Position numbers and translations under genes: made by a program
Notes under the pieces: generated by a model
The model's database searches: none
What the model saw: the letters and a program-made list of their open reading frames with translations, nothing else
Told to the model about the DNA's origin: nothing
From: a virus
IMG/VR virus record: IMGVR_UViG_3300045988_066371
Direction: 5' to 3' (one strand)
Length of the DNA: 17,171 bases
Shown: positions 1 to 17,171 of the stretch, in pieces
How positions within the stretch are numbered: position 1 is the stretch's first letter
Layout of the letters: every line of letters begins with the position of its first letter

Positions 1-71
1 TTTGTCTATAATTTAAGCGCGTAGTTTTTTCTCTGTTTTTGTGTTGTTCGGCGTGTCGTGTTTTTGTGGTG

Positions 72-80
72 TGGTATTAT
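72..80 (+). promoter_or_regulatory. Candidate extended -10 promoter (TGGTATTAT) inside the left ITR, reading inward
   Basis: TGnTATTAT at 72-80, about 40 nt upstream of the ITR ORF start. There is no good -35. The related TGGTATAAT recurs at 1347 and 3110 on the same strand. Confidence 0.45.
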
Positions 81-121
81 ATAACTATCAACCAAGGAAT
101 ACGGAAAGGATGGTGGTTGAG

Positions 122-307
122 ATGATGTATCGTCAAGACATTAAGAATGAGGTTATTGATTATATTCGCAACAGTGGCGAGCGTGTTGTGGATTATGATG
201 TTGATGCCGTTGTGGATTGTCTTGTTGTTATGTATGAGCGTAAGGGTGTTGAGTTTTATCGTTATTGTTTTGAGACTGTGGTTTTTATGAATCGTGTAGC
301 CGAGTGA
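122..307 (+). CDS. ITR-encoded small hypothetical protein (61 aa from ATG122; mildly acidic), left copy
   Basis: The ORF is open from 41 to 307. A GTG41 start would overlap the promoter-like element. The in-frame ATG122 follows SD-like GGAAAGGATGGTGG (103-116); ATG110 is an alternative. There is clear G-nonG-N codon periodicity with NNT codons. I recognise no family. Confidence 0.6.
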   Translation: MMYRQDIKNEVIDYIRNSGERVVDYDVDAVVDCLVVMYERKGVEFYRYCFETVVFMNRVAE

Positions 308-328
308 GCAATAAGGAAAGGAGAGATA

Positions 329-1701: not shown

Positions 1702-2139
1702 ATGGCTGACAACGAACTGACCGTAGCAAACGGCAATAATTTTGCGGCTAACGGCGCAAACGCCGTATCCCATTTTTTCAACACTGACACTATGGACGGC
1801 AAAATGGCGCTGTACAACGCCATGCAGACCGCCGATAAGGTGGACGAACATCTCAATGAGCCACTTCATGTGACCAACGTGCTTGCGCAGGCCATCGAGG
1901 TTGCCAACCAAGAGACCGGTGAAATCAACTCATCCACCCGCGTCGTTATCCACAGCGAAGAAGGCGATTTCGCCGCCGCCTCCCCCACGTTGGCGCACGC
2001 TTTTGGCAATCTGTTCGCTATTTTCGGCACGCCGGACACGTGGAATCACCCACTTGCTCTCAAGGTGGTGGAAAAGAAGAGTCGCCGTGGATTCAAGTTC
2101 TTCGATATTGAACTGGTGTCGGAAAAAGACCGTGGATAG
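1702..2139 (+). CDS. Hypothetical early protein (145 aa); possible phage ssDNA-binding protein (positional analogue of phi29 p5)
   Basis: SD AAGGAAGG (1684-1691) precedes ATG1702. It sits immediately upstream of the terminal-protein/PolB pair. The ETGEI...R.VI...G and FG.P...P..LKV pattern reminds me of small phage SSBs of Gram-positive phages. This is not verified. Confidence 0.6.
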   Translation: MADNELTVANGNNFAANGANAVSHFFNTDTMDGKMALYNAMQTADKVDEHLNEPLHVTNVLAQAIEVANQETGEINSSTRVVIHSEEGDFAAASPTLAHAFGNLFAIFGTPDTWNHPLALKVVEKKSRRGFKFFDIELVSEKDRG

Positions 2140-2174: not shown

Positions 2175-2186
2175 TCCCTATAGGGA
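2175..2186. promoter_or_regulatory. Perfect 12-bp palindrome TCCCTATAGGGA (possible operator or 5' hairpin)
   Basis: The sequence is self-complementary and lies in the intergenic region between the putative -10 at 2159-2167 and the terminator-like hairpin. Confidence 0.35.
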
Positions 2187-2201
2187 TGTTGCCGCCAGAC
2201 T

Positions 2202-2244
2202 CACCCCCCGCCGTTTCCATCCTTGCGGCGAGGGGTGTTTTATA
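2202..2244 (+). terminator. Rho-independent terminator-like hairpin ending the left early gene block
   Basis: CACCCCCCGCCG (2202-2213) pairs with CGGCGAGGGGTG (2226-2237): a 12-bp stem with one C-A mismatch. It is followed by TTTTATACT. Confidence 0.6.
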
Positions 2245-2263
2245 CTCACAAGGAGAGAGGGCT

Positions 2264-3208
2264 GTGGCAAAACGTAAAAACAATCGACGTGTTAACAGCC
2301 TGAAACGTAATGCCGCCATCAGGTCGGCGCAGGTACGCCGAGAGCAAGCGGTCAGAGATTACAGTACCGGACACCTCCCCAAGCAAATCACCGAAACGTT
2401 TCTAGGAAAACTCAGCGCCCAACAGCTCGAACAGGTTGCCCGCCGCGTCGGGCAGGAATTCGGGGAACGACAGCAGGCATTAAGGGCTCGGGACAGTGAG
2501 CCGTATCAGGTTGTCCCGGATGTGCATATTACGAAACTCGATAGGGAGTTAGCGGCGCGTCCGCTGATAACCGACGCGGAAATCGCCGCCGCCCCGTCGA
2601 AACGTCGGAAAACATTACGACAGCAACAGCGCCGCCGTATCGAAGCACGGCAGAAAATCAAACGCGCCCAACAATTCGAAGCCTTGAGCATGGCACGCTA
2701 CACAGTGGGCGAAATACGCGAAATGGAACGCGCCGGAGAATCTCCGTTCGACGTGTTGGGCACTCATACGGTTGGCGGTTCGGCGCGTGACGAACTCACT
2801 CGCAACCGGGCGAACGTGTTCGGCTCGGAGCGTGGCATAAGCCACGCACGTATGATGATACGAGAAGGAGGTAGGAGGAAACTTGAACGAGAGATACTCG
2901 AATACGCCGGTCTTATAGGTCGAGCACCATTGCACGCAGGCGCTAGAAAGATTTCTGAGAATGAGGGGGTTTCGGATTTTGATAGAGTCGCGCAACAGCT
3001 CGAAGCATTTGACTCCAATATTGCCCAAAAATTCGCTGCTTTATCGAACCGTCAAAAACGATGGCTGATAAACAACACGAATTTTAGCGCCGTGGTACGG
3101 GAAGCCGCATGGTATAATGATAAAACACATAAATGGGAGACAAAGGCGGACGCGGGCGATGTAGAGACACGACTTGATGAATGGATGGCCAGCGCGGCAC
3201 GACATTAA
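2264..3208 (+). CDS. Candidate terminal protein (314 aa from GTG2264)
   Basis: It lies directly upstream of the protein-primed PolB, as in the phi29 gene 3-gene 2 arrangement. GTG2264 is preceded by AAGGAGAGAGGG (2250-2261). The protein is very R/K-rich (KRKNNRRVNSLKRN; SKRRKTLRQQQRRRIEARQKIKR), consistent with the DNA-binding/nucleoid-targeting N-terminus of terminal proteins. I could confirm no sequence family by eye. Confidence 0.55.
   Translation: MAKRKNNRRVNSLKRNAAIRSAQVRREQAVRDYSTGHLPKQITETFLGKLSAQQLEQVARRVGQEFGERQQALRARDSEPYQVVPDVHITKLDRELAARPLITDAEIAAAPSKRRKTLRQQQRRRIEARQKIKRAQQFEALSMARYTVGEIREMERAGESPFDVLGTHTVGGSARDELTRNRANVFGSERGISHARMMIREGGRRKLEREILEYAGLIGRAPLHAGARKISENEGVSDFDRVAQQLEAFDSNIAQKFAALSNRQKRWLINNTNFSAVVREAAWYNDKTHKWETKADAGDVETRLDEWMASAARH
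3110..3118 (+). promoter_or_regulatory. Consensus extended -10 (TGGTATAAT) inside the 3' end of the terminal-protein gene, about 100 nt upstream of PolB
   Basis: Perfect TGnTATAAT. It belongs to the same 9-mer family as the ITR element (72-80) and 1347-1355. Confidence 0.35.
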
Positions 3209-3220
3209 AGGGATGGAATC

Positions 3221-4681
3221 ATGAAAGAGCGTCGAATGGCGGCAACGGACGGCGCAACACTATTGACGGACGACGGCATGGAACCATTGACAGTGAACGC
3301 CGTCATCCGTCTCACCATGCTCGACTATCATACGCGCGTATGGTGTGCCCACGGATGGCAGGACATCAAGCCCATAGCCGCCGAACTATTGACACGACTC
3401 CCCTTGCAGTCGAACCCAGCCAAGAACGGCGTATGGGGAACATTTAACATCCGTGGCCGCTTTTACAGTTTTCGCGTGCGCATGGGCGGTATCACCGTGG
3501 ATTTTCTGGACGTGCGCAACATCACGCGCGACGATGGTCTGAATGTTTCACGTGGAACATTCGGCGGTGCGGACGATTTGGAAACCACGTGGAATATCGC
3601 ACAGGAATGCGCCGCCCTGAACCTCAGGGGCACTACTATAGCGTCTATGGCAATGACCGACTATATCGGCGGGGATTACGCCGGATTCAAACGCCATTTC
3701 CCGCCGTTGAGCAGGGATGATTATCATCGGATGCGCCCCGCCTACTATGGGGCGATAGTATACAGCAAGCCGGGCGAATACCGGGATTGCCGGAGTTGGG
3801 ATGTGAACAGCCTCTACCCGAGTATCATGCGTGAGGCGCCCATGCCGGTAGGCTCACCCATATGGTACGACGGGAAGTATCAATATGACCCTGATTATCC
3901 GCTCCATATCGATGTTATCGCGTTTGATGCGCGCTTGAAGACGGGGAAAACGGCGACACTCACCAATATCCTACCCGTATGGGGGTATGAGGGTGAACGC
4001 TTGGATAGTACGCTCGGCGTCGTTACTATGCCCGTCACGGATGTGGATTGGGAGACGCTGACCGAAAACTATGATATCCACGTGTGGGAGCATGTCGGTG
4101 GATGGAAGTTTCGCAAATCGCATGGACTTTATTATACGTATGTGGACAAATGGTTTCACGTGAAACAGACCGCGACGGGGGAGCGCAAGCAGATGGCGAA
4201 ACTGTTGTTGAACTCGTTGGTGGGGAAATTCGGGGCCTCGCTGTACCGTCCCATGTTGCATCCGAAACCGTCTATGGACGGTGGTGTGGATTTTACCGTG
4301 GACAAGCCCGAGTCGGCCAACAGTCTAGCGTGGTTGCCGACCGCCGCTTATGTCAACGCCTATGGGAGGCGAATACTGTCACGTGCAATGAACGCGAACA
4401 CCGACCGCGTGCTCTACGCCGACACTGACGGCATGATACTGGAAGGATTGGATACGCCCGCAGGCATAGAAACGGATGACCGGAAACTAGGCGCGTGGAA
4501 AAACGACCATACCTATGAGAGGCTCCGTATTCTCGGCAATCGCAAATATTGCGGCGTGGAAACAGGCGGCGATACCGTCATGCGGTTGAGTGGCGTGCAT
4601 CGTGCCGCCCCCATCCCCTACGATGAGTTCCTGCCGGGGTCACGCCACATCAACGACGATGGACATACTTTTATGCTATAA
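3221..4681 (+). CDS. Protein-primed family-B DNA polymerase, phi29 type (486 aa)
   Basis: SD AAAGGGA (3207-3213) precedes ATG3221. Motif A is DVNSLYPS (nt 3800-), followed by GKYQYDPDYPLHI, very close to phi29 GKYVWDEDYPLHI. Motif B is KLLLNSLVGKFG (4199-), motif C is YADTDG (4415-4432), and an RKY (KxY-like) motif is present. There are insertions in the TPR1/TPR2 positions. Confidence 0.95.
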   Translation: MKERRMAATDGATLLTDDGMEPLTVNAVIRLTMLDYHTRVWCAHGWQDIKPIAAELLTRLPLQSNPAKNGVWGTFNIRGRFYSFRVRMGGITVDFLDVRNITRDDGLNVSRGTFGGADDLETTWNIAQECAALNLRGTTIASMAMTDYIGGDYAGFKRHFPPLSRDDYHRMRPAYYGAIVYSKPGEYRDCRSWDVNSLYPSIMREAPMPVGSPIWYDGKYQYDPDYPLHIDVIAFDARLKTGKTATLTNILPVWGYEGERLDSTLGVVTMPVTDVDWETLTENYDIHVWEHVGGWKFRKSHGLYYTYVDKWFHVKQTATGERKQMAKLLLNSLVGKFGASLYRPMLHPKPSMDGGVDFTVDKPESANSLAWLPTAAYVNAYGRRILSRAMNANTDRVLYADTDGMILEGLDTPAGIETDDRKLGAWKNDHTYERLRILGNRKYCGVETGGDTVMRLSGVHRAAPIPYDEFLPGSRHINDDGHTFML

Positions 4682-5231: not shown

Positions 5232-6962
5232 ATGCCAACCACTCCAGTGGTGACGCCGAAACAGCAGTTGCGACCGCTCACCGAATTCAATAACGCGCAG
5301 ATTCTCAATATGATTCGCAACGAGGCGTCGCCCGAATATCAGAGGCGTATGCCAAGTGCGACTCAGATGAACATGGACCGCCAAATGGCTACGCTCATGT
5401 CCAGCACCCAGCTGAAGAACGAGTTTTACTCGGCTCTGGTGAATCGTATCGGCGGCACCTACGTGAACACGTGGCGTTGGAATAACCCTCTTGGCATTTT
5501 CCAGCGTGCATCTCAGGCGTATGGCGACACGTGGCAGGAAATCGCCGTCGGTATGCCGCTCGCTCAGGTGTACGACCCGGACGCGGAGTACTTGGGCGCG
5601 GATAATTTCCGCAAGTGGAAAATCGACGTGGACAGCCTCTACCACCGTCTTGACTTTGCCCACTTCTACCCTGCGACAACGGATGATAAGACGCTCCAGC
5701 GTGCGTTCACCTCCGAAAATGGTTTGGCCTCGCTCACTTCACAGATTCTCACCTCCTGCTATAACGCGGCCGAGGTGGACTTGTTCGAGGCCATGTGTCA
5801 CCAGTTCGTCGAGTACGCAAAGCTCGGCGGATATTGGCGCGTACACATGGGACATGACCTTAACGACATGGGTTCGACGGAAACCGACGCGCGCGACATG
5901 TTGAGGCAGATTCGCGCATGGGCCGACACGCTGAAATTCGTCTCCACCCGATATAATGCGCGTCACATGCCGACCTTTGCCCGCCCGGATGAGCTTGTGT
6001 TGTTCTGCTCCCCCGAGGTCAAGTCAGCGCTTGATGTTCAGGGTCTGGCCACGGTGTTCCAGCGCACGGATGCGGAGCCGACCATCGACCGGATTATCGT
6101 CATCCCACAGGACAGGTTCGGCATGAATGGCGTGCAAGCCATCCTCACCACTGATAAATTCCTCATTGATATCCCCGTCATCAATGAGATGACCCAGCAG
6201 ACCAACCCGGTGAACATCAATTCAGTCAACCATTACCTGCATGTCCAGCATATCATCTCGGTGTCCGGCTTCGCCCCCGCCGTCATGTTCTGGACGGGCG
6301 CGGGTTCCACTGCTAACGTGGTGACGCCTACCAGTACGGCAGCCAAGACGCCGACCTTCCAGCTCAAACTCACCATGTACGGCGGCGGCGCGGAAACCCC
6401 AACGAACGTAACACGTGGAGGTGCGGTACAGGTCACTGCCGACACGACCATCTCCAACGACGGTACGGCCACATTCCGCTCGAATGCCGTCGAGTACGCC
6501 ATCGGCGACACCGCCAAGCCGAAGAGCAATTACACCTACATTTCGCCTACCGGCGTGCTGGTGGTCGGTTTGGATGAGCCGAACACCGCTATCCCGGTCA
6601 CGGCGACCGCCCTGTACACGAATCCGGCGACGCCTGAAGTGCCGGGCGCCGTGTCCGCAGCTCTGGACGTGCCGGTGGTCGGTGACGGTGTTATCGGATT
6701 CAACCCGTCCATCATTGCATCGATTGCCGTCAACGCCTCGAACGTGACTATGGGTCATACGGCACAGGCGACCGCCACGGCGACCATGATTGACGGGCGA
6801 ACCGCCGACGTGACCGCGCAAGCCGCATGGACGTCCGGCACTCCGGCGAACGCCACCGTATCCGAGTCCGGTGTGGTGACTGGAATCAAGGCGGGCAGCT
6901 CTGATATCACCGCCACGTTGTTCGGCGTGTCCGGTAAAAAGAGCGTGACCGTGACCGCGTGA
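5232..6962 (+). CDS. Major capsid protein, phi29 gp8 family, with C-terminal Ig-like (Big_2) domain(s) (576 aa)
   Basis: SD AGGAAGGA precedes the start. N-terminal matches to recalled phi29 gp8: ILNMIRNE...MPSAT versus IVNAIRNS...VPLAT, and FYSALVNRIG...NNPLGIF versus FITSLVDRIG...NNPLKKF. The C-terminal approximately 80 aa (nt about 6720-6959; VTMGHTAQATATATMIDGRTADVT...WTSGTPANATVSESGVVTGIKAGSSDITATLFG) is a textbook Big_2 fold signature. A second Ig-like segment probably lies upstream of it. Confidence 0.93.
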   Translation: MPTTPVVTPKQQLRPLTEFNNAQILNMIRNEASPEYQRRMPSATQMNMDRQMATLMSSTQLKNEFYSALVNRIGGTYVNTWRWNNPLGIFQRASQAYGDTWQEIAVGMPLAQVYDPDAEYLGADNFRKWKIDVDSLYHRLDFAHFYPATTDDKTLQRAFTSENGLASLTSQILTSCYNAAEVDLFEAMCHQFVEYAKLGGYWRVHMGHDLNDMGSTETDARDMLRQIRAWADTLKFVSTRYNARHMPTFARPDELVLFCSPEVKSALDVQGLATVFQRTDAEPTIDRIIVIPQDRFGMNGVQAILTTDKFLIDIPVINEMTQQTNPVNINSVNHYLHVQHIISVSGFAPAVMFWTGAGSTANVVTPTSTAAKTPTFQLKLTMYGGGAETPTNVTRGGAVQVTADTTISNDGTATFRSNAVEYAIGDTAKPKSNYTYISPTGVLVVGLDEPNTAIPVTATALYTNPATPEVPGAVSAALDVPVVGDGVIGFNPSIIASIAVNASNVTMGHTAQATATATMIDGRTADVTAQAAWTSGTPANATVSESGVVTGIKAGSSDITATLFGVSGKKSVTVTA

Positions 6963-7071: not shown

Positions 7072-9405
7072 ATGATGATTGACGATGTGAATACCTACGT
7101 GGAAGCTAATTTTTCTTGGGCGGAATGGACGCCCAACACTACGCTGAAACTCTGCCGCGTCCCGTGGGATGCATCCTACCGGGATGTCGTGCGGTTTGTT
7201 TCACGTGAAACACAGGAACAATGGTTCGATAAGTTGGATGGCGTGGAATGCCGACCGGCCACCATGCATATTTTCAACGCGCCTGCCCGCGTCGAACTTC
7301 CGTTTAATGAGGCGTCGAACTGGAATTATCTGGTGGCCTATAATGATTACCCCGGTTTGGAGGGGCCGCGCGCTTGGTATTACTTCATTCAGCGTGTCGA
7401 ATACGTCAATGCCCATTGCACGCAACTGGTTTTGATGTTGGACGTATGGCAGAGTTTCCAGCATGATGTCACGTTTGGCAGTTGTTATGTGACGCGCGGC
7501 CATATCGGTGTGGCCAATGAACGCCAGTGGGATGGTTATGGGAGAACCTATCTGGCACTTCCAGAGGGTTTGGATACCGGCAGTGAGATGGTAACGACGG
7601 CACAGCGGTATCATTCCATCATATCCGGAGAGCATCGGGATACTGTCGATGGGAAGGGGTTGGATTGGGTTGATTATGGCGTTATCATTGTGAGCACCAC
7701 GGATTTGACCAAGGCGCCCGGCAGTGAGTCGAAACCCGATTTGCGCACGGCGACGGGCAGTATATTCGAGGGTGCGACGGACGGATGCAATGTCTACTAT
7801 TGCAACTCTCGAATAAGTTACGTGTGGAACATCATGGCGGCTGGCACATCATACCCGTGGGTCACTCAGGGCATTTGCGCCGTGTACATGGTGCCGAAAA
7901 TCCCACAGGATTACATCAATCGCTACGGTCAGGAGGTAACACAAATCTTCGGCCAGTCGGTTGACGCGCAACATGGACGAGTCTATGGTTTCCAAAGCGG
8001 CGTGGACTCGGACATGCGTTACGAGGATATCATGACGGTAGACAATTTCAGGAATCTTTTTAACATCCCGCAACGATACCGCAATCTCCGTAAACTCCGC
8101 TGTTACCCCTATTGCGTCGTGGAATGCAGTTGCCTCAACGGAACGACCGTCAACTATAGGCCGGAGGATATCCAGTCCGATAACCTTACCATTCGAGAAA
8201 CGTACACATATGCCCCGTCCGGTACACGAATCAATTTCTACGCCCCCGGATACAATGAGGCCGGAGCGGACACGCTGCATCCAATCCAAATCAACAACCG
8301 AGGTTACGGTCTGCCTATCGACGGTGGGGAAATGCTCAATGCAAGCTTCGGTATCACCAACCTCCCTCATTTCAGCGTTGTCAACAATGGCGGCGCACTG
8401 GCTATGGCAAACAGTGCGTACACTCGCGCCTACGCTCAGGAATCCGCGCAGTGGACGCGACAAAAAGCATTGGCGTCGGCGGATGTCGCCAATTCAAACG
8501 CAATGTGGCAACGCGAATACGCCGCACAGCAAACCAATTGGGCCAATGAGAATCGCACCGCGAACAATGCAATCACGGCCAACTCGCTGAACCAGTCCCT
8601 TGCCATCAGTCAAGACCGAACCAGCCAGATGGCCGGATTGCAGGTGCAGCAGAACATCAGCAACAATAATCTCAACGGCATGGCCGGGGCCATCGGCGGC
8701 AGTCTGAACGCCATTGCCTCTCGTAACCCGATGGGAGTGGTGAACGCTGTCGGCGGCGCGTTCCTCGGCACCGCGCAGATGGACATAGCCAACCACGGCA
8801 TTAATTCCTCGGCGGCAATCTCAAACTCCACCGCCGCATCCAGTACGGCGAATCAGATAGCCACCAATACGGCGGCCACCTCGCAGGCAAACGCCTACGC
8901 GAGCGGAGCAACCGGATTGGGTAACCAGCTCAATGCCATCACCTCACAAGCCAATTATGGGCTGGCCGCCTACGCCGCCCAAGGAGACTATCAGAACGCT
9001 ATCGCGGGAATCAACGCGCAGGTACAGCAAATGCAGTTGACGCCGCCGACCGTCTCGGGCGCGCTTGGTGGAGACATGTTTAATCTGAGCAATGGTATCA
9101 TGGGTGTGTTGGTCAGGTTTAAGACGTGCGCCCCCAGTGCTCTGAGGGCCGCAGGCGAGTACATGCTAAGGTATGGGTATTTTGTTCAGCGCTTCATCAC
9201 CCCGCCCGCCTCGTTGGAATGTATGGAGAAATTCACGTTTTGGCAGATGCAGGAAGCGTATGTGAGAGGCACGTTGCCGGAGGAATACCGTTTGACCATC
9301 AAGGGCATGTTCGAGCGGGGCGTGACCGTATGGAGCAAGCCGGAGTATATTGGGGTGACGGACTGGGCGGACAATGAGCCGCTTTCGGACATTGGTTACG
9401 AGTGA
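7072..9405 (+). CDS. Tail knob / distal tube protein, phi29 gp9 family, with a large central Q/N/A/G-rich insertion (777 aa)
   Basis: SD GGAGG (7063-7067) precedes the start. The N-terminal pattern L.LCRVPWDASYRDVVRF.S...Q.QWF ... WYYFIQRVEYVN...DVWQSF matches recalled phi29 gp9 (ILADVPFSNDYKNTRWF.S..NQYNWF ... WFYAFVTELEFKN...DVLQTW). It occupies the gp9 position, just upstream of the portal gene as in phi29. Confidence 0.85.
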   Translation: MMIDDVNTYVEANFSWAEWTPNTTLKLCRVPWDASYRDVVRFVSRETQEQWFDKLDGVECRPATMHIFNAPARVELPFNEASNWNYLVAYNDYPGLEGPRAWYYFIQRVEYVNAHCTQLVLMLDVWQSFQHDVTFGSCYVTRGHIGVANERQWDGYGRTYLALPEGLDTGSEMVTTAQRYHSIISGEHRDTVDGKGLDWVDYGVIIVSTTDLTKAPGSESKPDLRTATGSIFEGATDGCNVYYCNSRISYVWNIMAAGTSYPWVTQGICAVYMVPKIPQDYINRYGQEVTQIFGQSVDAQHGRVYGFQSGVDSDMRYEDIMTVDNFRNLFNIPQRYRNLRKLRCYPYCVVECSCLNGTTVNYRPEDIQSDNLTIRETYTYAPSGTRINFYAPGYNEAGADTLHPIQINNRGYGLPIDGGEMLNASFGITNLPHFSVVNNGGALAMANSAYTRAYAQESAQWTRQKALASADVANSNAMWQREYAAQQTNWANENRTANNAITANSLNQSLAISQDRTSQMAGLQVQQNISNNNLNGMAGAIGGSLNAIASRNPMGVVNAVGGAFLGTAQMDIANHGINSSAAISNSTAASSTANQIATNTAATSQANAYASGATGLGNQLNAITSQANYGLAAYAAQGDYQNAIAGINAQVQQMQLTPPTVSGALGGDMFNLSNGIMGVLVRFKTCAPSALRAAGEYMLRYGYFVQRFITPPASLECMEKFTFWQMQEAYVRGTLPEEYRLTIKGMFERGVTVWSKPEYIGVTDWADNEPLSDIGYE

Positions 9406-16839: not shown

Positions 16840-16864
16840 TCATTACGAGACAGTCACGCGTTGC

Positions 16865-17050
16865 TCACTCGGCTACACGATTCATAAAAACCACAGTCTC
16901 AAAACAATAACGATAAAACTCAACACCCTTACGCTCATACATAACAACAAGACAATCCACAACGGCATCAACATCATAATCCACAACACGCTCGCCACTG
17001 TTGCGAATATAATCAATAACCTCATTCTTAATGTCTTGACGATACATCAT
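16865..17050 (-). CDS. ITR-encoded small hypothetical protein, right copy (identical to 122..307)
   Basis: Exact inverted duplicate of the left copy. It is the only minus-strand gene called and is convergent with the endolysin. Confidence 0.6.
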   Translation of the reverse strand: MMYRQDIKNEVIDYIRNSGERVVDYDVDAVVDCLVVMYERKGVEFYRYCFETVVFMNRVAE

Positions 17051-17091
17051 CTCAACCACCATCCTTTCCGTATTCCTTGGTTGATAGTTAT

Positions 17092-17100
17092 ATAATACCA
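17092..17100 (-). promoter_or_regulatory. Right-ITR copy of the TGGTATTAT extended -10, reading inward
   Basis: Mirror image of 72-80. Confidence 0.45.
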
Positions 17101-17171
17101 CACCACAAAAACACGACACGCCGAACAACACAAAAACAGAGAAAAAACTACGCGCTTAAATTATAGACAAA

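Follow-up and report, generated by a model that had tools for sequence, protein, structure and literature searches.

Can a phi29-type replicase still proofread when its exonuclease domain has been cut down in size? This question is raised by the polymerase gene of the window, the whole 17,171-nt stretch of viral DNA that we analyzed. Its product is 89 residues shorter than phi29 DNA polymerase, and only 193 residues precede motif A, versus 248 in phi29, a shortening that had been recognized in an earlier sequence-only reading. According to one study (PMC11161782), mavirus has the only family B polymerase in which the exonuclease domain is not conserved, and we found nothing in the literature on phi29-like phage polymerases that are exonuclease-deficient or carry a degenerate exonuclease.

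Results

The locus encodes a compact phi29-type polymerase

The polymerase open reading frame translates into 486 residues (Table 1). Pfam family PF03175 matches it with an E-value of 7e-34 (117.9 bits; cut-off 25.8) over residues 134-402 only, and the phi29 chain 1xhx is matched in sequence searches at 1e-45 over residues 155-443 only, such that residues 1-133 remain unaligned by sequence searches alone. The AF2 model (pLDDT 90.7) finds its best Foldseek match in phi29 DNA polymerase 2pyj (E 4e-40, TMq 0.84) over the full length, and hhalign runs against canonical polymerases return probabilities of 99.9-100. Each of the PolB motifs claimed in the sequence-only reading, DVNSLYPS, GKYQYDPDYPLHI (residues 218-230), NSLxGKF (here NSLVGKF, residues 331-337) and YADTDG, was located in the translation. 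Palm motifs A (DxxSLYP), B (KxxxNSxYG) and C (YxDTDS) all have counterparts, as does KxY, which reads RKY443 and aligns with its phi29 equivalent. Residues 194-443 align nearly without gaps to phi29 249-500, a region that takes in TPR1 and TPR2, so that both are represented. The gene product is best explained as a compact protein-primed replicase that is predicted to be active as a polymerase.

An in-frame TAA at 3206-3208, four codons 5' of the ATG, rules out a longer N-terminus, and a Shine-Dalgarno-like AAGGGA stretch lies just 5' of the same ATG. The protein corresponds to DAL11722.1, from a metagenome-assembled Caudoviricetes contig, while megablast returned no near-identical record in the phage collection.

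Inspection of the surrounding genome reveals features suggestive of a linear, protein-primed replicon: perfect 311-bp inverted terminal repeats flank the genome, and a candidate terminal protein (TP) gene, assigned by position only, adjoins the polymerase gene. The 340-residue candidate occupies the place of the annotated TP genes in Av-1, Momos and Tillums, and no family match was detected for it. The candidate and the polymerase gene share one frame and are separated by a single TAA, which raised the idea of a TP-polymerase read-through fusion; the two genes differ in frame in relatives L010 and L012, and the shared frame was therefore taken as a coincidence. Six early open reading frames (41-1671) have no family assignment. 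Searches with Pfam and PHROGs across every open reading frame of the 17-kb genome detected neither a separate exonuclease gene nor a helicase gene. The source is a small gut phage whose host is probably Bifidobacterium.

Table 1 Coordinates of the features discussed in the text and the evidence on which each assignment rests.
Feature	Position	Strand	Evidence
Left inverted terminal repeat	1..311	.	311 nt, 100% complementary to 16861-17171
phi29-type SSB	1702..2139	+	PF17427 E 1e-13; phrog_6243
Candidate terminal protein, 340 aa, directly upstream of the polymerase gene	2186..3208	+	Position only
phi29-type protein-primed PolB gene	3221..4681	+	ORF list; PF03175; phi29 DNA polymerase match; AF2 model
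Miniaturised exonuclease-fold (DnaQ-like) N-terminal domain, aa 1-133	3221..3619	+	Secondary-structure order, hhalign, dN/dS
Exo I remnant D10-G11-A12 (Asp kept, Glu to Ala)	3248..3256	+	hhalign: D10 vs D12, A12 vs E14
Strand β4 and Exo II remnant RVWCAHGWQD (aa 39-48); D48 = phi29 D66	3335..3364	+	Both HH alignments
Y82 = phi29 Y101, template-tunnel DNA contact	3464..3466	+	Invariant in alignments A1, A2 and A3; HH mapping
D97 = phi29 D121	3509..3511	+	Almost without variation among both short and long forms; HH mapping
Exo III remnant G115-G-A-D-D119-LETTWN; D119 = phi29 D169; 27-residue deletion site	3563..3595	+	Both HH alignments
T139 = phi29 T189, inter-domain loop DNA contact	3635..3637	+	28/28 short-family representatives; invariant in A1-A3
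Polymerase motif A DVNSLYPS (aa 194-201)	3800..3823	+	Translation; aligned to phi29 DVNSLYPA
Polymerase motif B KLLLNSLVGKFG (aa 327-338)	4199..4234	+	Translation, alignment to phi29
Polymerase motif C YADTDG (aa 399-404)	4415..4432	+	Translation, alignment to phi29
Truncated thumb, aa 457-486	4589..4678	+	DSSP, HH mapping
Right inverted terminal repeat	16861..17171	.	Complementarity to 1-311

The N-terminal domain keeps a trimmed exonuclease fold

Residues were mapped by profile-profile (HH) alignment together with two AlphaFold models, one of this polymerase and one of the canonical relative P0109, with structure tools providing scores and DSSP assignments only. In both models the N-terminal domain follows the same order of elements, β1-β2-β3-αA-β4-αB-β-β-β5-α-αC, which contains the β1-β2-β3-αA-β4-αB...β5...αC succession of a DnaQ-like fold. 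hhalign of the domain against 108 canonical N-terminal domains gives a probability of 99.9 (E 3e-32). Three deletions account for its reduced form: ~17 residues from the β2-β3 hairpin, ~5 residues from an inter-strand loop, and 27 residues before helix αC, the last of which takes away the counterparts of phi29 K143 and of the Exo III tyrosine, Y165. Two other alignments were not relied upon. hmmalign of the short family to the canonical N-domain HMM failed to align the larger part of the domain and was informative for D119 only, and hhalign of the immediate sub-clade alone (7 sequences, first 150 residues) reached a probability of 28% in an unreliable register and was set aside.

Three aspartates remain of the catalytic site

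Aligned with the D12-E14-D66-Y165-D169 pentad of phi29, the site reads D-A-D-(deleted)-D, with D10, A12, D48 and D119 at the four surviving positions. Three of the four carboxylates are present (D10, D48 and D119), while the Exo I glutamate, the Exo III tyrosine, K143 and N62/F65 are absent. At Exo I, the D-x-E motif is represented by D10-G-A12, which leaves one carboxylate, and no D-x-E is found anywhere in the first 60 residues. The same register appears in sub-clade runs, where the relative P0123 retains D-G-E-T. This register is weak, with an HH posterior of 1-2 on a 0-9 scale and with the gap placed elsewhere in the full-length and small sub-clade runs; anchoring on the strand start would instead make D10 the Glu equivalent, and a shift of +/-2 leaves the carboxylate count the same. 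At Exo II, H44-G-W-Q-D48 stands in place of N-x2-3-(F/Y)-D, keeping the Asp and lacking both Asn and Phe; N62 is replaced by G45, and nothing corresponds to F65. D48 lies 6 residues past the end of β4 in the model, the same as D59 in P0109. At Exo III, the Y-x3-D motif is reduced to D119, the Tyr position falling inside the 27-residue deletion and G115 in a loop. The 20 residues between D119 and the invariant Thr equal the distance for D159 in the P0109 model.

The position of the auxiliary lysine is deleted in both HH alignments; K143 of phi29 reportedly serves as this catalytic lysine within a Kx2h motif, as de Vega et al. are said to have described in 1997, and the effects of mutating E14, Y165 and K143 were reportedly documented by Bernad (1989), Soengas (1992), Esteban (1994) and de Vega (1997). 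The phi29 ssDNA ligands S122 and L123 are replaced along with N62 and F65, and two further positions are kept in the HH mapping, with T13 matching the ssDNA ligand T15 and H44 matching H61.

This map revises the sequence-only reading, which had aligned the domain by eye. The segments it named are all present: D35-Y-H37 at nt 3323-3331, FNIRGR at residues 75-80, and E121-TTW-N125 ahead of QECAAL. Their assignments, however, do not hold. RVWCAHG, used as the anchor for D35-Y-H37 as Exo I, is flanked in the AF2 model by helix 25-32 on one side and helix 46-59 on the other; it forms strand β4 (E37-42) rather than phi29 β2 and is HH-aligned to phi29 DLYF-HN rather than RVWAYGY, so that D35 and H37 are not Exo I positions. 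Exo II had been described as apparently deleted, yet HGWQ-D48 fills the site and D48 pairs with D66 in both HH runs; N125 had been set opposite the Exo III Asp, whose equivalent is D119. The broader statement that the domain lacks the Exo I/II/III catalytic residues is correct insofar as no canonical D-x-E, N-x3-F-D or suitably positioned Y-x3-D is present, and overstated given the three of four carboxylates. The central idea of a shortened domain with a kept scaffold and a non-canonical site stands, whereas all three residue assignments behind it were wrong. A D/E/D/Y/D set, which would have contradicted that idea, was sought at the five positions, shifted registers included, and is absent. 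Among the candidates for such a shift, D18/D19 sit in the variable β2-β3 turn; the D94/D97 pair includes the equivalent of phi29 D121 (D97), which canonical enzymes keep besides D66; and Y148/D152 align with phi29 F198/T203, beyond T189 and outside the exonuclease domain.

The thumb is truncated

DSSP assignments of the two models place the thumb hairpin strands at E475-477/E483-485 in this polymerase versus E529-539/E542-551 in P0109, with 3+3 strand residues left. HH mapping indicates that the counterparts of phi29 K557, Q560, L567 and T571 are deleted and that K555 corresponds to D479; 17 residues are deleted after KxY relative to phi29. In phi29, thumb-tip residues L567 and K555 stabilise the primer terminus at the exonuclease site (PMC1475753).

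Conservation and selection across the short-polymerase lineage

Short polymerases of 454-496 residues form ~28 clusters at 50% identity, including those of the cultured phages BP1 and BadAztec; homologues in the database number roughly 10,000 in total. BD811P2 falls in the same group, and its annotated polymerase start (445 residues) looks too late. An NJ tree, which is a rough distance tree, was used only to show that the short family groups together. A length of exactly 486 residues recurs in >80 clusters from independent samples; the polymerase's own cluster has 936 members, and that of one close relative has 2144.

The N-terminal domain is under purifying selection, with dN/dS values of 0.08-0.16 versus 0.07-0.09 for the polymerase part. 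Its best-conserved residues are Y82, D97 and T139, whose phi29 equivalents are implicated in DNA binding (PMC6351526). Among 80 close relatives D10, D48 and D119 are invariant, while position 12 is A, V, T, S or G and positions 117/118, beside D119, are hypervariable; within the sub-clade the three aspartates are kept down to ~46-55% identity. Invariance next to variable neighbors points to a function for the triad. Some catalysis could be that function, and residual exonuclease activity is thus possible. Outside the sub-clade, D48 and D119 are not conserved in the short family, the pattern expected after loss of catalysis. The full D-E-D-Y-D pentad is kept by Av-1, LE1-1, Momos, Tillums and CI461P2, and since these are other actinobacterial picoviruses, loss of the exonuclease site is not dictated by host phylum.

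Discussion

Proofreading has probably been lost or strongly weakened

From the residue map, the fold and the conservation pattern, we infer that proofreading has probably been lost or strongly weakened in this polymerase and that the scaffold persists for its part in strand displacement, in TP binding and in forming the template tunnel. Efficient proofreading would have gone from a trimmed 3'-5' exonuclease fold in which Glu is changed to Ala, Tyr and K143 are lost, the ssDNA ligands are replaced and the primer 3' end no longer has a thumb tip to keep it at the exonuclease site. The domain, together with TPR2, palm and fingers, would still build the downstream-template tunnel on which strand displacement and processivity depend, and it would also contact the terminal protein; these two roles are the likely reason for purifying selection on it. 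Asp10, Asp48 and Asp119, which persist, may act as leftover metal ligands, or their role may lie in strand displacement. In phi29, the exonuclease domain is part of the template tunnel, and the D12A/D66A enzyme is exonuclease-deficient, error-prone and also defective in strand displacement (PMC6351526).

That the domain still works as an exonuclease, through a non-canonical site, is an unlikely reading, although several observations lean toward it. Here D10, D48 and D119 would bind two metals, another residue or water would replace Glu14 and Tyr165, and proofreading would be kept, perhaps at a slower rate. The invariance of the triad in 80 relatives while 117/118 and 12 vary, its retention across the sub-clade, the preserved T13 and H44, and the strong purifying selection on the domain are all compatible with such an enzyme. 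It would nevertheless have to function with Glu, Tyr and K143 absent, with four ssDNA ligands replaced, and with no thumb-tip residues left to keep the primer at the site, and the sister clades, cultured viable phages among them, do without D48 and D119. Literature searches, which were not aimed at this point, found no protein-primed PolB exonuclease lacking the Exo I Glu, and the strand-displacement defect of D12A/D66A (PMC6351526) gives a reason other than catalysis for retaining the aspartates. Alternatively, a host exonuclease or an unannotated small early phage protein might supply proofreading in trans, leaving the mutation rate unraised. The six early open reading frames and the 340-residue frame without a family could hide a nuclease, yet no open reading frame of the window carries a Pfam or PHROG exonuclease signal, no example for a phi29-type replicase was found in literature not specifically searched for one, and a processive replicase encloses its primer terminus (PMC6351526); we regard this arrangement as improbable.

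An artefact, whether a wrong start, a faulty assembly or an N-terminal domain that has no relation to exonucleases, is scarcely credible. The failure of sequence searches to align the first 133 residues would be in keeping with it, but the upstream stop and SD-like site, the recurrence of the 486-residue length in clusters from independent samples, the same architecture in cultured phages, and the hhalign probability of 99.9% with a full-length fold match had already ruled it out.

If proofreading is indeed lost or strongly weakened, a 17-kb tailed phage can do without polymerase proofreading, a result relevant to how fast phages mutate and to their arms races with hosts in the gut of infants and adults. 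The lineage stays viable in culture minus catalytic residues, thumb tip and ~90 residues, and would form a natural deletion series that separates what the exonuclease domain contributes structurally (tunnel, strand displacement, TP binding) from catalysis. It would likewise offer a compact, naturally exonuclease-deficient strand-displacing enzyme for amplification and nanopore uses, which now rely on engineered D12A/D66A phi29 with weakened strand displacement. Evenly balanced, in our estimate, is a wider proposal: that an abundant gut-picovirus lineage replicates with a naturally proofreading-free, strand-displacing, protein-primed polymerase of 454-496 residues, in which loss of Glu/Tyr/Lys and of the thumb tip co-evolved, the Asp triad kept in the present sub-clade serves strand displacement instead of catalysis, and mutation would run 1-2 orders of magnitude above that of canonical phi29-like phages.

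Comparison with known systems

phi29 DNA polymerase (gp2; PDB 1XHX, 2PYJ, 2EX3) resembles the present enzyme in its protein-primed PolB class, its fold, motifs A, B, C and KxY, and TPR1-TPR2 continuity, and the phi29 genome likewise combines an SSB, a gene at the TP position, a polymerase gene and terminal inverted repeats. The differences lie in E14, which is Ala here, in the trimmed β2-β3 hairpin and in the removed tip of the thumb hairpin, as well as in the terminal repeats, which span 311 bp versus 6 nt in phi29 (PMC4974454). The Bifidobacterium phages BadAztec1/4, BP1 and BD811P1-3 share the short architecture (469-471 residues as annotated), 33-37% identity and the same gene order, and the BadAztec1 model superposes with TM 0.86/0.89 and rmsd 2.4. 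In contrast to the polymerase described here, these phages have no counterparts of D48 and D119, and BadAztec4 has its N-terminal TDG strand absent or shifted. The sub-clade of the present polymerase is the least degenerate of the short family.

Engineered phi29 D12A/D66A offers the closest functional parallel, with incomplete carboxylates in an intact exonuclease fold, and by that analogy the natural enzyme is expected to be error-prone but processive (PMC6351526). The two arrive there from opposite sides: D12A/D66A loses two Asp, with Glu, Tyr, Lys and thumb left in place, whereas the natural enzyme keeps its Asp and loses the others. Strand displacement is weakened in the engineered enzyme and must have been preserved or compensated in the natural lineage. 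Precedents for a family B polymerase losing proofreading while staying active as a polymerase are the pPolBs of mavirus and polinton-like viruses, in which the exonuclease domain is a remnant or missing, and Pol zeta, in which it is inactivated (PMC11161782; PMC7544198). Those enzymes are eukaryotic or come from eukaryotic viruses, whereas the present one belongs to a phage, and where mavirus discarded the greater part of the domain and acquired a helicase, the phage polymerase keeps the fold.

Genome context and identity of the polymerase

Perfect 311-bp inverted terminal repeats identify the window as a complete linear phage genome; the phi29 repeat is far shorter, given as 6 nt in one abstract (PMC4974454). 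Each repeat contains two 19-nt direct repeats (GTTGTGGATT...) spaced 24 nt apart. The gene order is phi29-like, running from small early ORFs through the SSB, an ORF at the terminal-protein (TP) position and the polymerase to the structural genes. The phage collection holds no record near-identical to the window. No Pfam or PHROG match was obtained for the ORF at the TP position, where TP genes are annotated in Av-1, Momos and Tillums. This ORF and the polymerase gene lie in one frame, parted by a single TAA and four codons. A read-through TP-polymerase fusion was rejected because relative genomes L010 and L012 do not keep the shared frame, which is therefore probably coincidence.

Three copies of a 14-bp palindrome, GTTTCACGTGAAAC, lie in the window (at most 1 mismatch; 0.10 expected), two within the polymerase gene in differing reading frames and one near the start of the tail gene. 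Both polymerase copies recur at identical gene offsets in L012, and L011, a 75%-identity relative, has one polymerase copy and one elsewhere. The palindrome may be a regulator target or a restriction/modification target. The major capsid protein has a C-terminal extension (aa ~450-575) matching Ig-like 'tail protein' families, and its orthologue in one relative matches Big_2.

Positions of genome features (nt) and of N-domain secondary-structure elements (aa) in the models of the query and a canonical relative
Feature	Position	Strand	Assignment
Inverted terminal repeats	1-311; 16861-17171		311 bp, perfect
Direct repeats in each terminal repeat	185-227		two copies, 19 nt
SSB	1702-2139	+	phi29-type, PF17427
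340-aa ORF	2186-3208	+	terminal-protein position, by position only
Polymerase	3221-4681	+	phi29-type PolB, 486 aa
Genes downstream of polymerase			major capsid, tail, connector, collar, lysis, packaging ATPase
Major capsid protein	5232-6962		
GTTTCACGTGAAAC copies	3545-3558; 4153-4166; 7198-7211		
Query N-domain, first half	b1 4-9, b2 13-16, b3 19-22, aA 25-32, b4 37-42, aB 46-59		
Query N-domain, second half	three strands ending at 97, helix 107-114, aC 119-132		
P0109 N-domain, first half	b1 2-9, b2 18-25, b3 31-34, aA 37-44, b4 49-53, aB 56-69		
P0109 N-domain, second half	strands ending at 111, helix 120-126, 23-residue loop, aC 150-172		

Motifs, TPR regions, fold and genome context all place the enzyme in the protein-primed PolB family. 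Its sequence is identical to DAL11722.1 ('MAG TPA_asm: DNA polymerase B [Caudoviricetes sp.]'), and its 90%-identity cluster has 936 members; one close relative is annotated from a Bifidobacterium breve MAG. Among cultured phages, Bifidobacterium phages BP1, BadAztec4 and BD811P2 come closest (33-37% identity). The BD811P2 polymerase (L001 3096-3386) appears to be annotated from too late a start (445 aa): the in-frame sequence upstream has the short-family N-terminal strand '...IRFTDGTELH...', which makes a true length of ~480 aa probable.

The N-terminal domain is a trimmed exonuclease fold

Inspection of the translated sequence recovers every string and coordinate quoted in the sequence-only reading and bears out its shortened N-terminus, with 193 residues before motif A against 248 in phi29. 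An annotation artefact is rejected by an in-frame TAA four codons upstream of the ATG. An AAGGGA Shine-Dalgarno-like stretch also lies upstream of the ATG, and a length of exactly 486 aa recurs in >80 clusters from independent metagenomes. Plain sequence searches align the polymerase part only (Pfam, aa 134-402; phi29, aa 155-443), a pattern consistent with strong divergence of the N-terminal domain.

A confident AlphaFold2 model generated from 37 homologues has a pLDDT of 90.7 (87-95 in the N-domain, aa 1-133). Against the PDB, it matches phi29 DNA polymerase best, along its full length (E 4e-40, TMq 0.84); among viral proteins, the BadAztec1 polymerase ranks first (TM 0.86/0.89). The N-domain elements correspond one-to-one with those of P0109, a canonical relative modelled in the same way, and profile-profile alignment of 28 short-family representatives with 108 canonical N-domains (phi29 first) gives a probability of 99.9 and E 3e-32. 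We infer from both comparisons that the domain is a trimmed DnaQ-like exonuclease fold; they also dispose of the idea of a new domain.

Residue map of the exonuclease site

All three residue assignments of the sequence-only reading fail. Its anchor, RVWCAHG equated with phi29 RVWAYGY, is strand b4, between aA and aB, and pairs with phi29 DLYF-HN; D35-Y-H37, placed at Exo I by that anchor, is not the site. Because b4 leads into Exo II, this motif is not deleted as claimed but present as the remnant H44-G-W-Q-D48. D48 pairs with phi29 D66 in both hhalign runs (N-domain and full-length) and lies 6 residues past the end of b4, like D59 in P0109; phi29 N62 is replaced by G45, and F65 is without counterpart. 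The Exo III Asp is D119 instead of N125: it pairs with phi29 D169 in both runs, and query D119 and P0109 D159 each precede an invariant Thr (T139, T179) by 20 residues. A 27-residue deletion takes in the positions of phi29 Y165 and K143, and helix aC begins at D119, versus nine residues earlier in the P0109 model.

The Exo I register, judged from alignments, is the least certain part of the map. The N-domain run and two sub-clade runs pair D10 (the 'DG' Asp that the short family conserves) with D12 and A12 with E14, and the relative P0123 retains D-G-E-T here. The full-length run shifts a 14-residue gap at Exo I (posterior 1-2), and anchoring on the strand start would make D10 the Glu equivalent. 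Only one of the two carboxylates exists whichever register is chosen. Shifted registers do not restore D/E/D/Y/D: D18 and D19 are turn residues, D97 (of D94/D97) corresponds to phi29 D121 and is present in canonical enzymes too, and Y148/D152 pair with phi29 F198/T203, beyond the domain boundary. That is to say, the proposed lack of catalytic residues holds for the Glu and Tyr but not for three Asp, and the canonical D-E-D-Y-D reads D-A-D-(deleted)-D. The query has lost or replaced the counterparts of phi29 K143, N62, F65, S122 and L123; it lacks the motifs of an active DEDDy exonuclease (Exo I, II, III, auxiliary Lys) and retains the fold.

A trimmed thumb and a constrained N-domain

At the C-terminus the query is shorter than phi29 by 32 residues, and a 17-residue stretch following KxY is missing. 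The thumb hairpin strands comprise 3+3 residues versus 11+10 in P0109; deletion has removed the counterparts of phi29 K557, Q560, L567 and T571, and D479 takes the place of K555. In phi29, the thumb coordinates synthesis with degradation, and L567 and K555 steady the primer terminus in the exonuclease site (PMC1475753). These losses fit an enzyme without primer shuttling to the editing site.

In pairwise comparisons of four relatives, dN/dS is 0.08-0.16 over aa 1-133 and 0.07-0.09 over the remainder, values that are approximate as dS is near saturation; judged by these ratios, the N-domain is not decaying. Y82, D97 and T139, kept in short and canonical forms alike, correspond to phi29 Y101, D121 and T189. 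The phi29 downstream-template tunnel is formed by the exonuclease domain, TPR2, palm and fingers; Y101 and T189 are linked to stabilised DNA binding within it, and D12A/D66A is exonuclease-deficient and error-prone with weakened strand displacement (PMC6351526). Most simply, the domain would be retained as a scaffold that forms the tunnel and serves strand displacement, processivity and TP binding, its exonuclease catalysis having presumably lapsed.

The remaining Asp residues bear on how complete such a lapse would be. D10, D48 and D119 are invariant in 80 close relatives (86-93% identity), which carry A/V/T/S/G at position 12 and are hypervariable at positions 117/118 beside D119. The triad is kept to ~46-55% identity in the sub-clade (P0083, P0089, P0091-P0094), with D119 replaced in P0094. 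This suggests, at the level of sequence conservation, selection on the three Asp within the sub-clade: either they sustain a residual metal-dependent activity, or their retention reflects a non-catalytic function, for example strand displacement. Such invariance among variable neighbours would favour residual activity, which we nevertheless consider unlikely. Across the 28 representatives, the D48 position is D in 10 and the D119 position D/E in 11; since the short family lacks these residues outside the sub-clade, the cultured phages BP1 and BadAztec4 included, the lineage overall does not depend on them. Loss of proofreading is predicted, and likely, for the query polymerase.

Distribution of degenerate sites

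Searching 1.84 billion representative proteins with a profile returned 10,180 homologues. Among the best 150 of these, ~28 clusters at 50% identity fall into the short family (454-496 aa). Degenerate exonuclease sites also occur in about a dozen proteins of intermediate length (516-564 aa). The canonical D-E-D-Y-D is present in 108 of 156 analysed representatives, and a canonical site is found in picoviruses from other Actinomycetota (Av-1, Eggerthella LE1-1, Curtobacterium Momos and Arthrobacter Tillums) and in Clostridium phage CI461P2. In a rough NJ tree the short family forms one group, inside which the query sub-clade is nested.

Ten metagenomic proteins of 516-561 aa (P0253, P0257, P0139, P0161, P0173, P0215, P0216, P0219, P0221 and P0246) have near-full-size N-domains lacking the canonical exonuclease residues, among them P0257, with D-F-Q and HDLKFF, and P0253, with ATFET and HDLKFY. 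Because such domains are also degenerate, decay of the proofreading site may be recurrent in metagenomic picoviruses.

Comparison with known polymerases

The query polymerase is a phi29-type replicase in miniature, whose proofreading site is degenerate and whose thumb is trimmed, a form that typifies an entire lineage of Bifidobacterium-associated picoviruses. The degenerate site originally proposed is real, and partly mis-described in its residue assignments. We found no literature report of such a site in phi29-like phages, and it goes unmentioned in both a 2024 review of the group and the BP1 paper. In a diverged phage PolA described in the literature, all three catalytic Asp are replaced. 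Eukaryotic viruses and cells provide family B polymerases without proofreading, namely the mavirus remnant domain, PLV pPolB-helicase fusions and Pol zeta (PMC11161782, PMC7544198).
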